From NCBI GenBank assembly GCA_965242525.1, contig OZ251459.1, forward strand, positions 480,001 through 544,000: DNA of 64,000 nucleotides, given 5' to 3'. Both the position numbers and the translations under genes were made by a program. The notes below the pieces were generated by a model. That model was given only the letters and a program-made list of their open reading frames with translations. It was not told the DNA's origin and did no database searches. The stretch is from an uncultured Candidatus Binatia bacterium. Lineage in GTDB: Bacteria; Desulfobacterota; Binatia; UBA9968; JAJDTQ01. Positions 4,905 through 49,364 of this stretch are shown here, one piece after another (position 1 is the stretch's first letter; each line of letters starts with the position of its first letter).

Positions 4905-5408
4905 TCAGGGCCGCCGGGCGTCCATGAGGCGCCCCAGCAGGCTATCGGGCCAGACCACGTGGAGGACGTTGTCGAACACCCCCACCACCAGGGCGGTCAC
5001 GAGACCCGTCAGCGCCAGCGTCACCCCCCACCCGGCCCGGCTCACGAACCGCAGGTAGAGCGCCAGGAAGAGGGCCAGGGCCGGTTGGAACCCCACCAGC
5101 AGCACCGACGCCAGGAGCGCCAGCGCGCACAGGTAGAAGGCGCCGGCCCGTCGGATCGCCTGGTCCGCGGGCACCGAGCGGTCCACCGCGATGTCGCGCA
5201 CGCGCTGGGGCGCCGGACTTTCCTCGCCGTGGTCCGGCCCCGCCACCGCGTCCCGCGCGAGCTGGACCAGGGCCACCAGCAGCACCGGGATGCCTACGGT
5301 CAACGGAAAGAGCCCGGTGGCGAAGGGCCACTGCCACGCCGTGGCCATGGCCGCGGCCAGCAGCACGAAGAAGAACCCGTCGAACAGCAGGACCACGGCC
5401 TTGCGCAT
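4905..5408 (-). CDS. tctB: TctB small membrane subunit
   Basis: About 167 aa with 4-5 hydrophobic segments, between tctA and tctC. Confidence 0.75.
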   Translation of the reverse strand: MRKAVVLLFDGFFFVLLAAAMATAWQWPFATGLFPLTVGIPVLLVALVQLARDAVAGPDHGEESPAPQRVRDIAVDRSVPADQAIRRAGAFYLCALALLASVLLVGFQPALALFLALYLRFVSRAGWGVTLALTGLVTALVVGVFDNVLHVVWPDSLLGRLMDARRP

Positions 5409-5413
5409 GCGCG

Positions 5414-6883
5414 TTACCCTCGGCTCGCTCGCTCCCGGATGGCGGGAACCGTCAGGGCGGCCACGATCAGGACGAACAGCACCACCACCCACGGCCGCGT
5501 GAGCCACGTCCAGCCGTAGGTCAGGATGGAGATGTACAGGTACTTCTCCACGGTGGAGCCCAGGACGAAGCCGATGATCAGGGGCGGCCGCGGCCATCCC
5601 AGCCGTTTCATGGACCAGCCCAGCAGTCCGAAGAAGAGGAAGCAGACCAGATCCGCCACGTGCCGGCGCGCCATGAAGGCGCCCAGGAACATGATGACCA
5701 GCAACACCGGCGCCAGGAGTTGCGCCCGGATGGTGGCGATGCGCGCCAGGTGGTCGGTGAACAGGAAGCAGGTGCCGGTGCCGATGACGTTGGCCAGGGC
5801 CAGGCTCCAGGCGATGGTGAAGATCACGTCCAGGTGCTGGTTCAGCATCTCGGGACCCGGGGCCAGCCCCTGTATCTCCATGGCGCCGAGGAACAGCGCC
5901 ATGCTCGTGCTTCCGGGGATGCCGAAGGCCAGGGTGGGGATCAGGCCGCCGCCGTCCTTGGCGTTGTTGGCGCTCTCCGGCGCGATCACCCCGCGCACGT
6001 CGCCGGCGCCGAAGCTGTCCGGGTTCTTCTCCGTGTGCAGCGCATGGCCGTAAGCGAACCAGTCCACCACCAGGGTGCCGAGGCCCGGGACGATGCCGAT
6101 CCACACTCCCAGGGCGCTGGAGCGGATCACCAGCCACCAGTGCCGGAACGCGTCCCGCACCCCCTCCCAGCGCCCCTTGAGTCGACCCAGGGCCGCGGCG
6201 TCGATGCTCTTGCCCGACACCAGCAGGTCCGTGGTCTCCGCCAGACCGAACAGCCCCAGGGAGAGGGGCACCACGTGGAACCCTTCCCACAGATAGACCT
6301 GGTCGAAGGTCCATCGCTCCACGCTGAGGATGGGGTCGGCGCCCACCGTGGCCAGAAGCAGCCCCGATCCTCCGGCCACCATCCCTTTCATGAGTGCGGC
6401 GCCGCTCAGGCTCGCCACCATGCACACCCCCAGCACCGCCATCATGAAGAACTCGGGGGAGCCGAAGGTGAGCACCAGCGGGCCGAGGACCGGGATGGAC
6501 AGGGTGAGCACCAGGGCGCCGAAGACGCCGCCCAGGGCCGACACCGTGAAGGCGGCGCCGAAGGCGCGCCCGGCCTCGCCGCGCTTGGCCATGGCGTGGC
6601 CGTCGAGGATGGTGGCCTGGGACCCCACTGTGCCCGGCACCGCGAACAGGACGGAAGGGATGGTGTCCGAGGTGGTGGTCACCGCCAGCATGCCGATGAT
6701 GAAGGCGAAGGCGGAAACCGGATCCATGTCGAAGGTGAAGGGGAGCAGCAGGGCCAGGCCGGTGACGCCCCCTATCCCCGGGACCACACCGAGCAGCAGA
6801 CCCAGCAAGACCCCGCCCAAGAGCATCAGGAGATGCGTCGGCACGAGGATCTGCAGGCTGGCCTGTGTGATGGCGTCGAGCAT
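5414..6883 (-). CDS. tctA: TctA permease
   Basis: PGIGG..LALLLP, ATILDGHAMAKRGEAGRA, GVIAPESANNA, LAFGIPG. Confidence 0.92.
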   Translation of the reverse strand: MLDAITQASLQILVPTHLLMLLGGVLLGLLLGVVPGIGGVTGLALLLPFTFDMDPVSAFAFIIGMLAVTTTSDTIPSVLFAVPGTVGSQATILDGHAMAKRGEAGRAFGAAFTVSALGGVFGALVLTLSIPVLGPLVLTFGSPEFFMMAVLGVCMVASLSGAALMKGMVAGGSGLLLATVGADPILSVERWTFDQVYLWEGFHVVPLSLGLFGLAETTDLLVSGKSIDAAALGRLKGRWEGVRDAFRHWWLVIRSSALGVWIGIVPGLGTLVVDWFAYGHALHTEKNPDSFGAGDVRGVIAPESANNAKDGGGLIPTLAFGIPGSTSMALFLGAMEIQGLAPGPEMLNQHLDVIFTIAWSLALANVIGTGTCFLFTDHLARIATIRAQLLAPVLLVIMFLGAFMARRHVADLVCFLFFGLLGWSMKRLGWPRPPLIIGFVLGSTVEKYLYISILTYGWTWLTRPWVVVLFVLIVAALTVPAIRERASRG

Positions 6884-6983
6884 GGATCGCCTGCCCGGCG
6901 GAACCCGGGGCCGGAGGGGTTCCCCACGGGCGTTCCGGGTGGACCGGGCCGGGGCGCGGACGGATCGCCGTCCCGTCCCGGAG

Positions 6984-8039
6984 TCAGCTCTCCTCGCCGT
7001 ACAGGTTCAGGCTCTCCATCACCGGGCGGTCCGTGACCGAGAAGAGGATAGCGGGCTCGGCACCGGACGCGTTGCGGAAGTGGTGCCAGTGCCAGGACGG
7101 CACGACGAAGCAGTCCTGCCGACTCCAGTTCATCGCGGCCCCCTCCTTCCGGTCCCGGCCGGCCACGGTGACGCCCTCTCCCTGCATCACGTGGTAGATG
7201 GTGCTGCCGGTATGGCGATGGCTCCGGGTGGCCTGACCGGGACGCAGCCACTGGACCCGGCAGTCGATGGTGGGCATGGTGGGGCCGCCGGTCACCGGGT
7301 TGGCGTATTGCAGGAGGACGCCGTCGAAGGGGTCGTCGTCTCCGGCCTCGGCCATGGCCTCCAGCACCGGCAGGGTGTCGCGCCACTTGTAGGTGTAGGG
7401 CAGCGCGCGGTTGCCGGGATGCTCGGTCCGGGGCCGCACCGGGCCCAGGCGGTGACGGCTGTAGCCTTCGGACTTGACCACGGGCTGGGCGGGTCCCTCT
7501 CCGTAGTTCTCGTGGAAGTTCGTGTCCAGGTGGTTCATCAGGTGGATGTCGAGCACGTCCAGCCACACGATGTTCCGCTCCCCGCGGTTGTAGTGGTCGT
7601 GCCACGTCCAACTCGGCGTCAGCACCAGGTCGCCGGGCTCCATGTGCATCTCCTCGCCCTCCACCGTGGTGTAGCCGGCGCCGTCCCCCTCCACCACGAA
7701 GCGCAGGGCCGCGGCGGTGTGTCGGTGGCACTCGGCGCGCTCTCCGGGCTTGACGAGCTGCACCGACATCTGGATGGTGCGGGTGGTGGACTTGAACGCG
7801 GTGAGACCGGGGTTCACCAACTGCACGGTGCGCCGTTTGGCCGCCTCGTCGATGTGGCCCAGTTGGACCACCTCGCCGGACTCCATGAGGCACGAGTGGA
7901 CCACCGGCCAGCGCCACAGGTGCGGCCGGAGCTCCGGGGGACGCTGGCGCGGCTGCCAGTGGCCGGCCAGGGAGTTCTCGGCCAGGGTCCGGTGCAGCGC
8001 CTCCAGGCGCGGGTCTTCGGCGTGGACTGCTTCACTCAT
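6984..8039 (-). CDS. Gentisate/1-hydroxy-2-naphthoate 1,2-dioxygenase-like bicupin
   Basis: ECHRHTAAALRFVVEG..WTWHDH..WLDVLD; YANPVTGGPTMPTI; second HRH..WHWHH. Confidence 0.85.
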   Translation of the reverse strand: MSEAVHAEDPRLEALHRTLAENSLAGHWQPRQRPPELRPHLWRWPVVHSCLMESGEVVQLGHIDEAAKRRTVQLVNPGLTAFKSTTRTIQMSVQLVKPGERAECHRHTAAALRFVVEGDGAGYTTVEGEEMHMEPGDLVLTPSWTWHDHYNRGERNIVWLDVLDIHLMNHLDTNFHENYGEGPAQPVVKSEGYSRHRLGPVRPRTEHPGNRALPYTYKWRDTLPVLEAMAEAGDDDPFDGVLLQYANPVTGGPTMPTIDCRVQWLRPGQATRSHRHTGSTIYHVMQGEGVTVAGRDRKEGAAMNWSRQDCFVVPSWHWHHFRNASGAEPAILFSVTDRPVMESLNLYGEES

Positions 8040-45252: not shown

Positions 45253-46217
45253 GGGCGCTCCGCACGGCTTTCCTGGACGCGGCCACTTTCGGCGTCGTCT
45301 CCCTCGCCCGGTTCGAGGAAGCCGGCGAGTGCGCGGCGCACGAGCTGACGGACGCGGCCGAGTTGCCCGAACGGCTCGCCGGTTGCGAGGTCGTGGTGGT
45401 GAACAAGTTCGTCCTCGACCGGGAACGGTTGGAGCATCCTTCGGCCCGGGGTCTCCGGCTCATCGCGGTGGGGGCCACGGGCACCGACAACGTGGACGTC
45501 GGGTGCGCCCGGGAACTCGGGATCGCGGTGTGCAACGTGCCGGGCTACGCCGCCGCGGCGGTGGCGCAGTTCACCCTGGCGCTGATCCTGGAGTTGGCCA
45601 CCCAGGCGGCCCGGTACGCCCAGGGCACGCGCATGGGCCGCTGGCAGGAGAGCACGACCTTCACGCGGCACGACTACCCGAGCTTCGAGCTGCGGGGGCG
45701 CGTGCTGGGGATCGTCGGGTACGGCGCCATCGGGCGCAAGGTGGCGGAGACGGCCCGGGTCCTCGGCATGAAGGTGGCGCTGGCCGACCGGGTGGGGGAC
45801 CGACGGCGCCGGCCGGACCGCCTGCCCCTGGAGGAAGTGCTGGGGCAGGCCGATTTCGTGAGCCTGCATTGCCCGCTGACGCCGCTCACCGCGGAGCTCG
45901 TCAACCGGCGCACCCTGGCGCTGATGAAGCCCACCGCCTACCTGGTCAACACCGCCCGCGGCGGCCTGGTGGATGAGGCGGCGTTGATCGAGGCGCTGGA
46001 GCAGGGCCGGCTCGCGGGCGCGGCCCTCGACGTCATCTCGCAGGAGCCGCCGGACGAAGGCCATCCGATGATGGCCGCGGCGGCCCGGCTGGACAACCTC
46101 CTGGTAACCCCCCACTGCGCCTGGGCCGCGCGGGAGACGCGCCAGCGGCTGATGGACGAAGTGTTCGAGAACGTCCAGGCGTTCCGCCGCGGCCACAGGC
46201 GGAACCGCGTGGACTAG
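45249..46217 (+). CDS. D-2-hydroxyacid dehydrogenase (glycerate dehydrogenase/HprA-like)
   Basis: ATGTDNVD, GIVGYGAIG, SLHCPL, NTARGG, TPHCAWA; GTGA overlap with mazG. Confidence 0.9.
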   Translation: MRALRTAFLDAATFGVVSLARFEEAGECAAHELTDAAELPERLAGCEVVVVNKFVLDRERLEHPSARGLRLIAVGATGTDNVDVGCARELGIAVCNVPGYAAAAVAQFTLALILELATQAARYAQGTRMGRWQESTTFTRHDYPSFELRGRVLGIVGYGAIGRKVAETARVLGMKVALADRVGDRRRRPDRLPLEEVLGQADFVSLHCPLTPLTAELVNRRTLALMKPTAYLVNTARGGLVDEAALIEALEQGRLAGAALDVISQEPPDEGHPMMAAAARLDNLLVTPHCAWAARETRQRLMDEVFENVQAFRRGHRRNRVD

Positions 46218-46235
46218 TTGCGGGACCGTCTCCCC

Positions 46236-46427
46236 TTACGCCCGGCTGCCTCGGATCTCCCCTCGCAGTTCGGAAAACTCCCGCGCCAGGTTGTGGATGT
46301 CCTTCCGCAACTCGTTGACCTGTTCCTGGAGCCGGTCGATCCTGGTGTCGAGTCGTCCGGTGATTCGCCAGACGAACAGGCCGAGGGCGATTCCGAGGCC
46401 GATCATGGTCAGTATCTCGCTGCTCAT
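46236..46427 (-). CDS. Small N-terminally anchored coiled-coil protein, 1 heptad (63 aa)
   Basis: MSSEILTMIGLGIALGLFVWRITG-RLDTRID-RLQEQVNELRK.. Confidence 0.75.
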   Translation of the reverse strand: MSSEILTMIGLGIALGLFVWRITGRLDTRIDRLQEQVNELRKDIHNLAREFSELRGEIRGSRA

Positions 46428-46544
46428 CTTCGGGGCCTTCCCTTCATGCGTCCTGTTTCGTCCGTTCGATCCGGCCCGGCCCGTGGAGACGTTCCGGCGC
46501 CGCGGAAGACGGAACCGCGCGGCCCGGTTTCCGACCGCCTTTCG

Positions 46545-46757
46545 TCACGCGTGGCTGCCTCGGATCTCCCCTCGCAGTTCGGAAAACTCCCGCGCCAGGT
46601 TGTGGACGTCCTTCCGCAACTCGTTGACCTGTTCCTGGAGCCGGTCGATCCGGTTGTCGAGCCGGTCGATCCTGGTGTCGAGTCGTCCGGTGATTCGCCA
46701 GACGAACAGGCCGAGGGCGATTCCGAGGCCGATCATGGTCAGTATCTCGCTGCTCAT
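46545..46757 (-). CDS. Small coiled-coil membrane protein, 2 heptads (70 aa)
   Basis: ..RLDTRID-RLDNRID-RLQ..; same upstream sequence as the other copies. Confidence 0.75.
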   Translation of the reverse strand: MSSEILTMIGLGIALGLFVWRITGRLDTRIDRLDNRIDRLQEQVNELRKDVHNLAREFSELRGEIRGSHA

Positions 46758-46875
46758 CTTCGGGGCCTTCCCTTCATGCGTCCGGCTTCGTCCCCTCGAC
46801 CCGGCCCGGCCCGCGGAGGCGTTCCGGCGCCGCGGGAGACCGGAACCGCGCGGCCCGGTTTCCGACCGCCTTTCG

Positions 46876-47130
46876 TCACGCGTGGCTGCCTCGGATCTCC
46901 CCTCGCAGTTCGGAGAACTCCCGCGCCAGGTTGTGGACGTCCTTCCGCAACTCGTTGACCTGTTCCTGGAGCCGGTCGATCCTGTTGTCGATCCGGTCGA
47001 TGCGGGTATCGAGTCGGTCGATGCGGGTATCGAGTCGGTCGATCCTGGTATCGAGTCGTCCGGTAATTCGCCAGAGGAACAGGCCAAGGGCGATTCCGAG
47101 GCCGATCATGGTCAGTATCTCGTTGCTCAT
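46876..47130 (-). CDS. Small coiled-coil membrane protein, 4 heptads (84 aa)
   Basis: (RLDTRID)x3-RIDNRID-RLQ.. Confidence 0.75.
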   Translation of the reverse strand: MSNEILTMIGLGIALGLFLWRITGRLDTRIDRLDTRIDRLDTRIDRIDNRIDRLQEQVNELRKDVHNLAREFSELRGEIRGSHA

Positions 47131-47234
47131 CTTCGGGGCCTTCCCTTCATGCGTCCTGTTTCGTCCTCTTGACCTTGATCGGTACTTTTTCCCGTGACTT
47201 TAGTCCATGTCGTGGATTTTCTCTGTTCAAGGGG

Positions 47235-47264
47235 AAGTTAACCCAAGGATTTCGGCCCTGTCAA
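47235..47264 (-). promoter_or_regulatory. Putative sigma70 promoter for the triplicated array
   Basis: TTGACA-N18-TAACTT on the minus strand, about 100 nt before ATG 47130. Confidence 0.55.
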
Positions 47265-47355
47265 TCGAGTCCGCGGAACGACGCGACGGACCGCGGCCCC
47301 CGGCGGGCGTGGCGGCGTCGGCGGTTGCGCGCCCTTGCCGGCCGGGCGCGAGCCG

Positions 47356-48219
47356 CTACCGGCCGGTGATGAGGACGGCGCCGCCGAGGAGGGACAGGGC
47401 CCCGAGGACGACGTTGAGTGTGACCTTCTCCAGGTCCCGGAGGAAGACGAGGCTGAAGAAGAGCGAGAAGAGGGGCGTGGTATTGAGCAGGGGGACCATG
47501 ACCGAGACCTCGCCCAGGCTCAGGGAGACGAACACGAGGAGTTGCGAGCCGGCCGAGACGAACGCCGCGGGCAGGAAGTAGGGCATGCTTTCCCGGCTCG
47601 GCGCCACCACCGGGAACTGCCGCTTGATCCAGAGGTACAGGGCAAAGATGGTGAGGGAGGTCCCCGTGGTCACCGCGCCCCCGACGAACGGGTTGGGCAG
47701 GATGAGCAGCCCCGCCCTGCGGAAGTTCTGGGACACCCCGGCCAGCAACCCCCCGGCCATGGGATAGAGCGCGTCCACGAGCCGCCAGTCGCCCGCGGCG
47801 GCGCCCCTCCGGTAGAGGACCATCCACCCTCCGGCGACGATGAGCAGCGCTCCGAGATAGACCGGCGCGGTGGGCCGCTCGTGCAGGAAGAGCACCGCGA
47901 CCGCCACGGAGAAGAGCGGTCCGGTGCCGCGAAGGGGCATGGCCCGGGCCACCCCCAGGCGTTCGATGCCGATGTAGAGCAGTATCCGCGCCAGCAGGGG
48001 CTGGAGCGTGCCGCTGGCCATGAAGTAGAAGGCCGCGGGGGACCGGACCACGGACAAGGGGTAGCGGAGCGCCACGTAGGACCACATCAGCACGGCGGTG
48101 GCCACGTAGCTGAGGAAAGCCGCGCTGAGGACGCTGGAGGCGCGCGCGCCCCGGCGCACCAAGATGGAGTCCACGGCCCAGCCCATGGCCGAGATGATGG
48201 GGACGATTTCGGGGCGCAT
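47356..48219 (-). CDS. EamA/DMT family transporter
   Basis: About 10 TM segments in two repeats; GIERLGVAR, FLHERPT, LGEVSVMVPL. Confidence 0.88.
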   Translation of the reverse strand: MRPEIVPIISAMGWAVDSILVRRGARASSVLSAAFLSYVATAVLMWSYVALRYPLSVVRSPAAFYFMASGTLQPLLARILLYIGIERLGVARAMPLRGTGPLFSVAVAVLFLHERPTAPVYLGALLIVAGGWMVLYRRGAAAGDWRLVDALYPMAGGLLAGVSQNFRRAGLLILPNPFVGGAVTTGTSLTIFALYLWIKRQFPVVAPSRESMPYFLPAAFVSAGSQLLVFVSLSLGEVSVMVPLLNTTPLFSLFFSLVFLRDLEKVTLNVVLGALSLLGGAVLITGR

Positions 48220-48324
48220 CGCTTCGGGTCTCGGGAGGATGCAGTCCGCTGTAGCCGATACCGCCCGGATAGGCAAACCGGACAGGCGAACGAGGGGCTG
48301 CGGCCCCGGCGTTTCGGGCGCCGC

Positions 48325-48354
48325 TTGACGACCGTTGCCGCGGGACGCTACGGT
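48325..48354 (+). promoter_or_regulatory. Putative sigma70 promoter for the coxMSL-like operon
   Basis: TTGACG-N18-TACGGT. Confidence 0.35.
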
Positions 48355-48398
48355 AGCTTCCCGTACCCGGCGCCGCCGCACGCGCCCCGGCACCCGTC

Positions 48399-49364
48399 AT
48401 GAAACCGCCGCCCTTCCGTTACCACTCCCCCCGGTCGCTGCCCGAGGCTCTGGATCTCCTGCGGGACCTGTCCGGGGACGTCCGGGTGCTCGCCGGCGGA
48501 CAGAGCCTTGCGCCGCTGCTCAACCTGCGCCTTGCCCGTCCGGATGCGCTGGTGGACCTCAACCGGGTGGAGGGGCTGTCCTACATCCGCGAAGCGGACC
48601 CTCACGAAGCGGACCCTCACGAAGCGGACCCTCACGACGGAGGCGCTCACGAAGGGGGCGTCCACGAAGCGGGGGGCGCACGGCTTCGCCTGGGCGCCAT
48701 GACCCGGCAGCGCGAGGCCGAGTTCTCGCCCCTGCTGGCGGAGCGCTGCCCGCTCCTGGTGGAGGCCCTGGTCCAGGTGGGCCATCCCGCGGTCCGCAAC
48801 CGCGGCACCATCGGCGGCAGCCTCGCCCATGCCGACCCGGTGGCCGAGCTCCCCTGCGCCATGACCGCGCTGGAGGCCGAGTTCGTGCTGGCCGGCCCCC
48901 GGGGCGAGCGGGTGGCGCGGGCCCGGGACTTCTTCCTGGCCCCCTACGAGACCGCGCTGGCCCCCGGCGAGCTGCTCGTGGAGGTCAGGGTCCCGGCGGC
49001 CGCGGCGCCGCGGGGCGCCAGCTTCGTGGAGTTCAGCCGCCGGCACGGCGACTTCGCCCTGGCCGCGGCCGCGGTGGTGCTGGACGGCGACCGCCGCTGC
49101 ACCGGCGCGCGGGTGGCCGCGGCCGGTCCGGCGTGGACGCCCTCGCGGCTCGACGCGGTGGAGCGGCTGGTGGCCGGGTCCCGGGTGGCCCGCACGGACC
49201 GGGCCGCGCAGCGCGAGCTGGCGGAAGAGGCGGGCCGGGCCGCGGAAACCGAGGCCGCGGCCCTGGCGACCCGTGACGACGCCACCGACTACCAGCGGCG
49301 CCTGGCCGGGGTGCTGGTGAAGCGCGGGGTGGCCAAGGCGCTGGAGCGATGGAGCAGCCGGTGA
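48399..49364 (+). CDS. Molybdo-hydroxylase FAD subunit (CoxM/CutM-like)
   Basis: MKPPPFRYHSP, LAGGQSL, RNRGTIGGSLAHADP, RRHGDFA. Confidence 0.92.
   Translation: MKPPPFRYHSPRSLPEALDLLRDLSGDVRVLAGGQSLAPLLNLRLARPDALVDLNRVEGLSYIREADPHEADPHEADPHDGGAHEGGVHEAGGARLRLGAMTRQREAEFSPLLAERCPLLVEALVQVGHPAVRNRGTIGGSLAHADPVAELPCAMTALEAEFVLAGPRGERVARARDFFLAPYETALAPGELLVEVRVPAAAAPRGASFVEFSRRHGDFALAAAAVVLDGDRRCTGARVAAAGPAWTPSRLDAVERLVAGSRVARTDRAAQRELAEEAGRAAETEAAALATRDDATDYQRRLAGVLVKRGVAKALERWSSR
48591..48680 (+). repeat. 15-bp intragenic VNTR (EADPH x3 plus degenerate units)
   Basis: gaagcggaccctcac x3 followed by three diverged units. Confidence 0.9.

Follow-up and report, generated by a model that had tools for sequence, protein, structure and literature searches.

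A tandem array of membrane-anchored coiled-coil mini-protein genes with a putative sigma-28-type promoter in an uncultured Candidatus Binatia bacterium

Small bitopic coiled-coil proteins are common and, to our knowledge, mostly unstudied. In the heptad classes of chemoreceptors and in Braun's lipoprotein, the length of the coiled coil, counted in whole heptads, sets a distance from the membrane; the long direct repeats of E. coli and other tandem type I toxin loci consist of units of a few hundred nucleotides, each encoding a small membrane peptide. Here we analyse an array of three minus-strand open reading frames (ORFs) of 84, 70 and 63 amino acids (aa), arranged in 330/331-nt units within positions 46236-47130 of a 64,000-nt stretch of genomic DNA (hereafter the window) from an uncultured Candidatus Binatia bacterium. 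The proteins of this array family have no sequence relation to chemoreceptors or Braun's lipoprotein, and their length varies five-fold at one syntenic site. Unlike the long direct repeats, the array gave no antisense-RNA signal in promoter, Rfam and folding scans and has a conserved coil and tip and stable synteny.

By build, the closest described protein appears to be the gp25 releasin of phage Mu, a DUF2730 (PF10805) protein, which shares with the array family the small size, the N-terminal membrane helix, the predicted N-out/C-in orientation and the short helical cytoplasmic domain (as outlined in PMC9239132). The DUF2730 profile nevertheless stays below its cut-off on the 84-aa protein (22.9 against 24.9 bits) and aligns to residues 37-80 only. 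Unlike releasin, the array family occupies a core-genome position, has a stalk of variable heptad number and an invariant tip of its own, and neither the 67 neighbouring proteins nor the 35 window proteins that were scanned include an endolysin, a transposase or a member of a phage family. The XhlA profile also stays below its cut-off (27.3 against 34.7 bits) and no lysis genes lie nearby, while in PHROGs the spanin matches have E values of 4e-4 to 3e-3 and the sole holin match (phrog_1296, E 9e-6) concerns a 137-aa relative only. The division proteins FtsB, FtsL and DivIC are likewise bitopic, with an N-terminal membrane helix directly before a leucine-zipper-like coil, and weak alignments cover both parts, but the scores are below the cut-offs (DivIC, 18.8 against 28.9 bits; FtsL_COG5462, 14.9 against 50); moreover, these proteins face the periplasm and are encoded in division clusters, whereas the array family is predicted to be cytoplasmic and has unrelated neighbours. 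Among the defence systems in PADLOC, the best match is DruC (E 2.2e-5), with LmuB, JetC and PbeC matched too, all of them over the coil only, and, unlike the context of defence systems, the neighbours of the array are metabolic genes.

The reading that we favour, with moderate confidence, is that the array encodes sigma-28-linked, membrane-tethered coiled-coil stalks, which belong to an unnamed family of small bitopic inner-membrane proteins and drift in length by heptad slippage. Among the open-access papers searched, no counterpart was found for a FliA-regulated single-pass coiled-coil protein or for heptad-variable membrane-anchored coiled coils.

The protein family and its predicted architecture

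Of 413 candidates from a word-indexed search with the 84-aa protein, 83 reached E ≤ 0.01, and the ~35 highest-ranking ones are full-length relatives of 60-104 aa. Their 35-row alignment falls into three parts, namely a conserved N-terminal hydrophobic stretch, a middle with heptad insertions and deletions, and an invariant end. Positions E4, G12, R21, R70, E71, S73, E74, R76 and G77 are invariant, the last six of them within LAREFSELRGEIRG, and W20 is nearly so. When 1.84 billion cluster representatives were searched with the profile, 842 matched at E ≤ 0.001, many of these over the coil alone, and 35 still matched at E ≤ 1e-10; the full-length small matches examined share the membrane helix, the R-h-D coil and the signature DHxxLARE[LF]SE[LF]RGE[IM]RG.

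Genomes were scanned as well, yielding 23 loci, 13 of them, by record title, in Candidatus Binatia metagenome-assembled genomes (MAGs), many at chromosome level, and 10 in others. Eight of the 23 are labelled Deltaproteobacteria, Thermodesulfobacteriota or Syntrophobacterales and have the same gene order; one Gammaproteobacteria and one Dehalococcoidia locus are distant relatives. The family thus appears to be nearly confined to Binatia-type MAGs. In L022, a Gammaproteobacteria MAG, the distant homologue (5325-6273, plus strand) shares the REFSELRGEIRG tip; an Hsp20 gene immediately precedes it, and there is no sigma-28-like box. When all ORFs of the 23 loci and the window were searched with the family hidden Markov model (HMM), 31 genes were recovered at E < 1e-12. 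They form two paralogue types, A (GLFIW; 8 loci including the window) and B (AAFNW and RLEN; 15 loci). On the conserved ends, the ratio of non-synonymous to synonymous differences (pN/pS, uncorrected and with pS close to saturation) is 0.31 for 55 A-A pairs and 0.21 for 153 B-B pairs. Judged by these comparisons, the array genes are real, conserved coding genes, with coil and tip under purifying selection. The original prediction, made by a model from the letters of this DNA, had described them as genes for a small membrane-anchored coiled-coil protein, which agrees with the conserved family found here.

Each array protein has a 16-residue membrane helix (I5-W20) carrying the pattern G10-x-G12-x-x-x-G16, after which the heptad register runs unbroken to the C-terminus, position a being I/V/F, position d L, position e D/E and position g R. 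The C-terminus is the invariant tip REFSELRGEIRG, and in the last two heptads both core and surface positions are invariant, which fits a docking surface or a folding trigger. Because the positive-inside rule applies to the invariant E4 before the helix and to W20-R21, joined by R25, after it, the predicted topology is N-out/C-in, with the coil in the cytoplasm. Helices rise by approximately 0.15 nm per residue, so that the cytoplasmic helices of 43, 50 and 64 residues in the window would measure ~6.4, 7.4 and 9.5 nm.

To the complex predictor we gave three copies of the 84-aa protein together with the family alignment, in three runs. The score was 0.81 in all three, against 0.00 for the best control, with a partner pLDDT of 88-89, and the runs agreed in at least 95% of contacts. 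The contacts are in register (30-30, 33-33, 58-58) and extend along residues 4-79. In the calibration, the mark was reached by 20 of 30 same-chain pairs and by 1 of 23 single-chain proteins, counts that are only roughly valid for a three-copy model, since two copies and the proteins' own alignments were used there. The model supports self-association of the chains as a parallel, in-register bundle. As to a trimeric state, the R-h-x-x-h-D/E heptads, R(g)-I/L/M(a)-D-R-L(d)-D/E(e), resemble the R-h-x-x-h-E motif of the trimers coronin-1, cc-beta and GCN4p-M3, and relatives carry the exact motif units RIDRLE and RMDRLE. R-h-x-x-h-E is a published trimerisation motif that also occurs in some dimers, as stated in PMC3653964.

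No family of Pfam, NCBIfam or PADLOC fits these proteins, and PHROGs, too, matched them only below threshold or over the coil. Pfam gave only generic coiled-coil matches, and NCBIfam none above its cut-offs. The single Pfam score above a cut-off on the 84-aa protein, Prefoldin_2 (29.5 against 27.6 bits), covers the coil only and was set aside. At E ≤ 1e-3, Prefoldin_2, XhlA and DUF2730 each match 4 of the 35 members in the alignment. None of 29 candidates for a longer protein containing the 63-aa form as a fusion reached E ≤ 0.001, and the nearest clusters in the ESM Atlas are either unnamed or a phage 'holin family' cluster (0.91). As a separate observation, the best match in a sequence search of the PDB is a 33-residue coiled-coil stretch of influenza HA2 (EKEFSEVEGRIQ; E 7e-4, 22.7 bits), aligned to family profile positions 36-68 in the C-terminal part, the REFSELRGEIRG tip included; it is likely a convergent coiled-coil likeness, not homology.

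Promoters, array layout and stalk length

Promoter boxes were located by eye and by pattern across the leaders of the family genes. In both paralogue types, a TAAA(G)-N14/15-(G/A)CCGA(T/A) element stands 68-99 nt before the ATG. In the window, the TAAA-N15-GCCGA spacing of the box is that of sigma-28 promoters, and the box is the sole TAAA-N15-RCCGAT match in 64 kb, where 0.01 is expected by chance. Its CTAAAG and (G/A)CCGAT(A/C)A elements are those of promoters read by sigma-28 (FliA/SigD/WhiG), for which PMC12784957 gives the consensus TCTAAAG at -35 and GCCGATAA at -10 and shows a fliC promoter of P. aeruginosa that is spaced in the same way. In 326 kb (the window and the 23 loci, both strands), the strict pattern was counted 24 times, and 20 of these matches lie within 150 nt upstream of family genes, as compared with 1.3 on average and at most 4 in the block-shuffle control. 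If TAA[AT] is allowed, a sigma-28-like box precedes 21 of the 31 family genes. Of the ten genes without it, four follow another copy in an array (genes 2 and 3 of the window, and the second gene in each of L014 and L019), four have a single mismatch in TAAA (two in L004, and those of L010 and L016), and two are the distant outgroups.

Two further loci carry related promoter elements before other genes. In L005 (1349-2244, plus strand), a tandem pair from another membrane-helix and R-x-D-R coiled-coil family encodes proteins of 120 and 127 aa that differ by one heptad, DRFKQID, each gene being preceded by CTAAAG-N14-GCCGATTC; this pair accounts for two of the four strict matches that do not precede family genes. 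In L003 (859-1323, minus strand), the gene of a 154-aa membrane-helix and coiled-coil protein with a weak family match (E 1.2e-8) has a perfect GCCGATAA ~30 nt before its start, with no TAAA at the -35 position.

The TTGACA-N18-TAACTT promoter named by the original prediction is present, and its layout, in which a T-rich hexamer comes 17-18 nt after TTGAC[AG], recurs before 7 of the 8 first genes of type A, 134-194 nt before the ATG; the copy in L007 is nearly identical. The sigma-70 consensus rule does not call it, however, as its -10 element matches at 3 of 6 positions. Neither this box nor the sigma-28-type one precedes genes 2 and 3. By consensus scan of positions 45900-47500, there were no intrinsic terminators and no sigma-70 promoters, although such a scan can miss the promoters of this lineage, and spacer 1 folds as RNA no better than its shuffles (z +1.03), as does the 3' flank (z +0.33); Rfam gave no match at E ≤ 1 in 45500-48000. 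Since genes 2 and 3 have no boxes of their own, no terminator was called and the spacer is not unusually structured, these copies are probably co-transcribed with gene 1, which is the simplest reading of the sequence.

A micro-ORF, MKGRPRR* (ATGAAGGGAAGGCCCCGAAGATGA), had also been pointed out at each start. It does precede all three genes, and covers the Shine-Dalgarno-like AAGGGAAGG (47147..47139), but it is not a feature of the family: L007, where it reads MKGRLRT, is the sole orthologue to share it, and the remaining type-A leaders and those of type B lack it. Its ATGA overlap follows from the Met-Ser start of the proteins, and the micro-ORF is probably a by-product of this start and of the ribosome-binding site.

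The layout of the array, three gene and spacer units whose products form a ladder of heptads, agrees with the original prediction in the translations, in Tandem Repeats Finder (period 330 nt, 2.1 copies, 95% matches, score 1271) and in a repeat search, which found three-copy families of 197 and 183 nt. From the codon layout, the proteins share one plan and differ by four, two and one copies of a 21-nt R[LI]D[TN]RID unit (86-91% identity among the 1-4 units per gene); as length changes by whole heptads, both frame and coil register are kept across the copies. The units had further been called near-identical, spacers included, and the two spacers are ~92% alike. Of the 5' leader, only ~40 nt recurs in front of genes 2 and 3; the rest of each spacer, apart from the filler, is akin to the sequence that follows gene 3. 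There, the end of the convergent dehydrogenase gene (46172-46219) is 73% identical to spacer positions 46482-46529 (repeat family D4), and an alignment of the downstream sequences by eye agrees. Because the spacers hold this diverged copy of the tail of the dehydrogenase gene, the duplication took place in situ: a unit of the gene, ~75 nt of 3' flank and ~40 nt of leader would have been duplicated twice in place, and in-frame slippage of 21 nt would then have led to four, two and one heptads. As all seven other type-A loci hold a single family gene (63-78 aa), the window array is, by this comparison, a lineage-specific local triplication of an uncharacterised mini-protein gene. An Arg/Gly/Pro-rich ORF of 41 aa (46754..46879, minus strand), which bridges the whole of spacer 1 between the GTGA at the stop of gene 1 and the ATGA at the start of gene 2, was considered and is probably non-coding; its counterpart in spacer 2 (46444-46548, minus strand) is stopped at 46444 and has 34 aa.

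Across the family, the stalk was measured from R21 to the residue preceding REFSELRG in 61 distinct sequences, where it ranges from 21 to 102 residues. Modulo 7, the length is 4 in 37 sequences, 0 in 18, 1 in 3, 5 in 2 and 3 in 1, which fits 7n + 4m, that is, R-h-D-x-R-h-D units with zero to three 4-residue R-h-D/E-x stutters. The original prediction knew of no described system with the layout of the array, yet tandem arrays of unequal length recur in relatives. In L004, a chromosome-level record, four type-B copies (5514-7523, plus strand) have stalks of 50, 64, 47 and 75 residues, and each retains a promoter region of its own together with part of the 3' end of the convergent neighbour, which argues for an independent duplication of the same kind; in L014, two copies have stalks of 39 and 36 residues, and in L019 two older, diverged copies have equal ones. 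Genes 2 and 3 of the window differ by one non-synonymous and zero synonymous changes over 45 conserved codons, and a single heptad is the only difference within each of the metagenome protein pairs P0091/P0088 and P0095/P0005. These comparisons support the view that heptad number changes faster than point substitutions and is fast in evolutionary terms. At the same time, 90% clusters hold 12 different sequences that are all 70 aa long and 4 that are all 63 aa long, so heptad counts are stable enough for substitutions to accumulate. We read the variation as minisatellite-like drift.

Genomic setting and competing explanations

The neighbours were scanned with Pfam for 67 of 130 ORFs, at 5 of the 8 type-A and 7 of the 15 type-B loci. 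At all five type-A loci scanned (the window, L007, L008, L010 and L013), the family gene lies between an EamA transporter gene, immediately upstream and in the same orientation, and a downstream 2-hydroxyacid dehydrogenase gene that is convergent with it, with genes for molybdenum hydroxylase subunits diverging farther upstream; the other three have ORFs that match in size and position, the only features compared there. At the seven type-B loci, LigA is downstream in seven and a tetrapyrrole-type methylase in four, and upstream there is NAD synthase, directly adjacent, in four and a C-N hydrolase in six, the misses being ORFs that the gene caller did not deliver. The family thus appears to sit at two fixed core-genome sites between convergent housekeeping genes.

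According to the reading favoured here, each protein would be a stalk tethered to the membrane, with a conserved docking tip positioned ~6 to 9.5 nm beneath it; the protein would be expressed with the late motility regulon, and the stalk could vary freely in length provided that the heptad phase is preserved. PMC8262859 reports flagellar biosynthesis genes for every Binatota order other than Bin18, HRBin30 and UBA1149. Several points weigh against this reading. The supplements of PMC8262859 have no entry for fliA, fliC, flagellin or K02405, and no flagellar genes are found among the window proteins scanned with Pfam. Both promoter assignments rest on consensus and conservation. The -10 element of the window box is ACCGATCA, not GCCGATAA, the first and seventh positions deviating, and the type-B box overlaps a good sigma-70-like promoter, TTGACC-N17-TAGTAT, so that its conservation could be due to sigma-70 alone, which is the main caveat. 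The topology has the positive-inside rule as its sole basis, and the tip REFSELRGEIRG has no known partner. Coiled coils often score high in complex predictors, three copies were the only number modelled, so that the bundle may be a dimer or a trimer, and, unlike the published trimers with their strictly conserved Glu, the window heptads have Asp at position e. Types A and B have unrelated neighbours (EamA and NadE, respectively), and gene context is therefore uninformative on function. Finally, the exact 84-aa protein is absent from a collection of 15 billion proteins, unlike its 70- and 63-aa neighbours.

A more specific proposal, which we regard as unlikely, is that the family is a lineage-specific, membrane-tethered parallel coiled-coil 'ruler' of the sigma-28 (late flagellar/chemotaxis) regulon: the tip would dock a cytoplasmic partner at a distance set by the number of heptads, slippage would retune this distance, and arrays of unequal copies would be co-expressed to provide several spacings or mixed bundles. 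In a bolder form, the protein would act like Mu releasin on a membrane-tethered wall hydrolase needed during the building of flagella.

The original prediction had interpreted the array as a two-level contingency locus, in which gene copy number times heptad number yields rods of graded or mixed length for host interaction or phage defence. The fast change of heptad number, the near identity of genes 2 and 3 apart from one heptad, the two metagenome pairs and the recurrence of arrays in L004 (four copies) and L014 (two copies; the two of L019 being equal in length) are in line with it, as are two identical 21-nt units within gene 1. Yet the repeat units are few and imperfect, and the groups of 12 and 4 variants of constant length point to stable counts. 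Nor did the proposed roles find support: the PADLOC matches are coiled-coil noise against SMC-like models, the rod is predicted by the positive-inside rule to be cytoplasmic, and lineage-wide the gene occupies two fixed sites between housekeeping genes, not a variable island. We consider this reading as a whole improbable.

Just as doubtful is a periplasm-facing stalk of N-in/C-out topology that, much like Braun's lipoprotein or FtsB/FtsL, would serve as a spacer or tether within the envelope. Length-defining periplasmic coiled coils do exist, and the DivIC (E 0.0014-0.0099) and FtsL (E 0.015-0.018) profiles align over both helix and coil, albeit below their cut-offs. The residues that flank the helix (E4 before it, W20-R21 and R25 after it) nevertheless favour a cytoplasmic C-terminus, there is neither a positively charged N-region nor a cleavage site like that of signal peptides, and the five-fold range of lengths among orthologues is hard to square with a fixed width of the periplasm.

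A domesticated or remnant phage protein of the lysis type (Mu gp25 releasin of DUF2730, holin/XhlA or Rz-like spanin), acting on the membrane or on a tethered cell-wall hydrolase, seems to us a poor candidate. It would account for the releasin-like build (PMC9239132, in outline) and for the near-threshold DUF2730 score mentioned above; precomputed Pfam labels give PF10805 on several relatives, PHROGs lists phrog_736 (1.3e-6), an XhlA-type hemolysin (3.6e-6) and an Rz-like spanin (4e-4), and one Atlas neighbour is the phage 'holin family' cluster. The DUF2730 matches, however, are confined to the coil and leave out the membrane helix, Prefoldin_2 and XhlA match just as many of the 35 members, no endolysin, transposase or other phage gene occurs among the scanned neighbours, and the core-genome position is stable across ~20 genomes.

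Tandem type I toxin-like membrane peptides, each paired with an antisense RNA from the spacer as in the E. coli long direct repeats, would suit the small proteins with their membrane helix, the tandem units of ~330 nt, the conserved spacers and the holin-like Atlas cluster. This alternative is very improbable: the consensus scan, with the limit given above, called no promoter on either strand of the array, spacer folds are no better than shuffles and without an Rfam match, the coil and tip are under purifying selection, and the gene holds a fixed syntenic position, in single copy in most relatives. An assembly artefact, in which strain variants of one gene were laid out in tandem, is hardly believable, for although near-identical units are hard for short-read assemblers and the 84-aa protein is missing from the protein collection, the spacers hold the 73% diverged tail of the neighbouring gene and junction filler, a structure that argues against stacked strain variants, the 70- and 63-aa proteins are recorded together on one 4.15-Mb (4,149,062-nt) contig, and another chromosome-level record, L004, has a four-copy array.

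Other features of the window and significance of the family

Coordinates are collected in Table 1. The remainder of the window encodes metabolic and transport proteins, and no mobile-element or phage family was detected among the window proteins scanned with Pfam (8 and 35, with 7 of the 35 without any match), as the original prediction had it for the surroundings of the array. An intergenic element resembling repetitive extragenic palindromes or miniature inverted-repeat transposable elements (REP/MITE-like), with the core CGTTCGTCCTGAGCGTAGCGAAGCG, occurs in 13 copies in the window, where 0 are expected by chance, none of them inside the array; in L007, the two promoter boxes are separated by one inserted copy, and a second copy follows the family gene. 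The gene for the FAD-binding subunit of a molybdenum hydroxylase (48399-49364, plus strand) contains an in-frame insert of tandem peptide repeats near 48.57-48.60 kb, EADPH three times followed by GGAHEGGVHE, which splits the FAD_binding_5 match of Pfam in two.

Table 1 Features of the array and its surroundings, in window coordinates
Feature	Position	Strand	Remarks
Gene 1	46876..47130 (47130->46876)	-	84 aa; four R[LI]D[TN]RID heptads; hmmsearch against the family profile, E 1.4e-41
Gene 2	46545..46757	-	70 aa; two heptads; exact protein in public collection on a 4,149,062-nt contig
Gene 3	46236..46427	-	63 aa; one heptad; exact protein on 3 contigs of public collection
21-nt repeat array in gene 1	46969..47058	-	4.3 copies, two units identical; Tandem Repeats Finder and codon layout
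21-nt repeat array in gene 2	46638-46682	-	2.1 copies; Tandem Repeats Finder
Spacer 1	46758..46875	-	118 nt; diverged copy of the 3' flank, ~19 nt GC-rich filler, ~40 nt duplicated leader
Spacer 2	46428..46544	-	117 nt; ~92% like spacer 1; also ~19 nt GC-rich filler
3' flank of array	46172..46235	-	Overlaps the end of the convergent dehydrogenase gene; probable source of part of both spacers
P1, sigma-70-like promoter TTGACA-N18-TAACTT	47235..47264	-	Read in the sequence; conserved in type A
Putative sigma-28 (FliA)-type box CTAAAG-N14-ACCGATCA	47176..47202	-	33 nt downstream of the sigma-70-like box
Micro-ORF MKGRPRR*	47127..47150; copies 46754..46777, 46424..46447	-	Precedes all three starts
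EamA-family transporter gene	47356..48393	-	Upstream neighbour; Pfam EamA, E 1.9e-21; start codon uncertain
D-isomer 2-hydroxyacid dehydrogenase gene	45255..46217	+	Convergent neighbour; Pfam 2-Hacid_dh_C, E 7.4e-56
REP/MITE-like element, 25-nt starts	25388, 32396, 32742, 36965, 37023, 37150, 39021, 41272, 41304, 43912, 61531, 61648, 63841		

If the link to the promoter fails, the finding shrinks to a lineage-specific tandem duplication of a hypothetical gene. If it holds, the conserved sigma-28-type promoter would be a new, testable link to motility in an uncultured lineage and a handle on its sigma-28 regulon. The idealised R-h-D-R-h-D/E heptad could help in studying coiled-coil length and the upkeep of register during repeat slippage. 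The family itself amounts to a natural experiment: at one syntenic site, stalks of 3 to ~15 heptads connect the same anchor to the same tip, and adjacent genes sometimes encode several stalk lengths.

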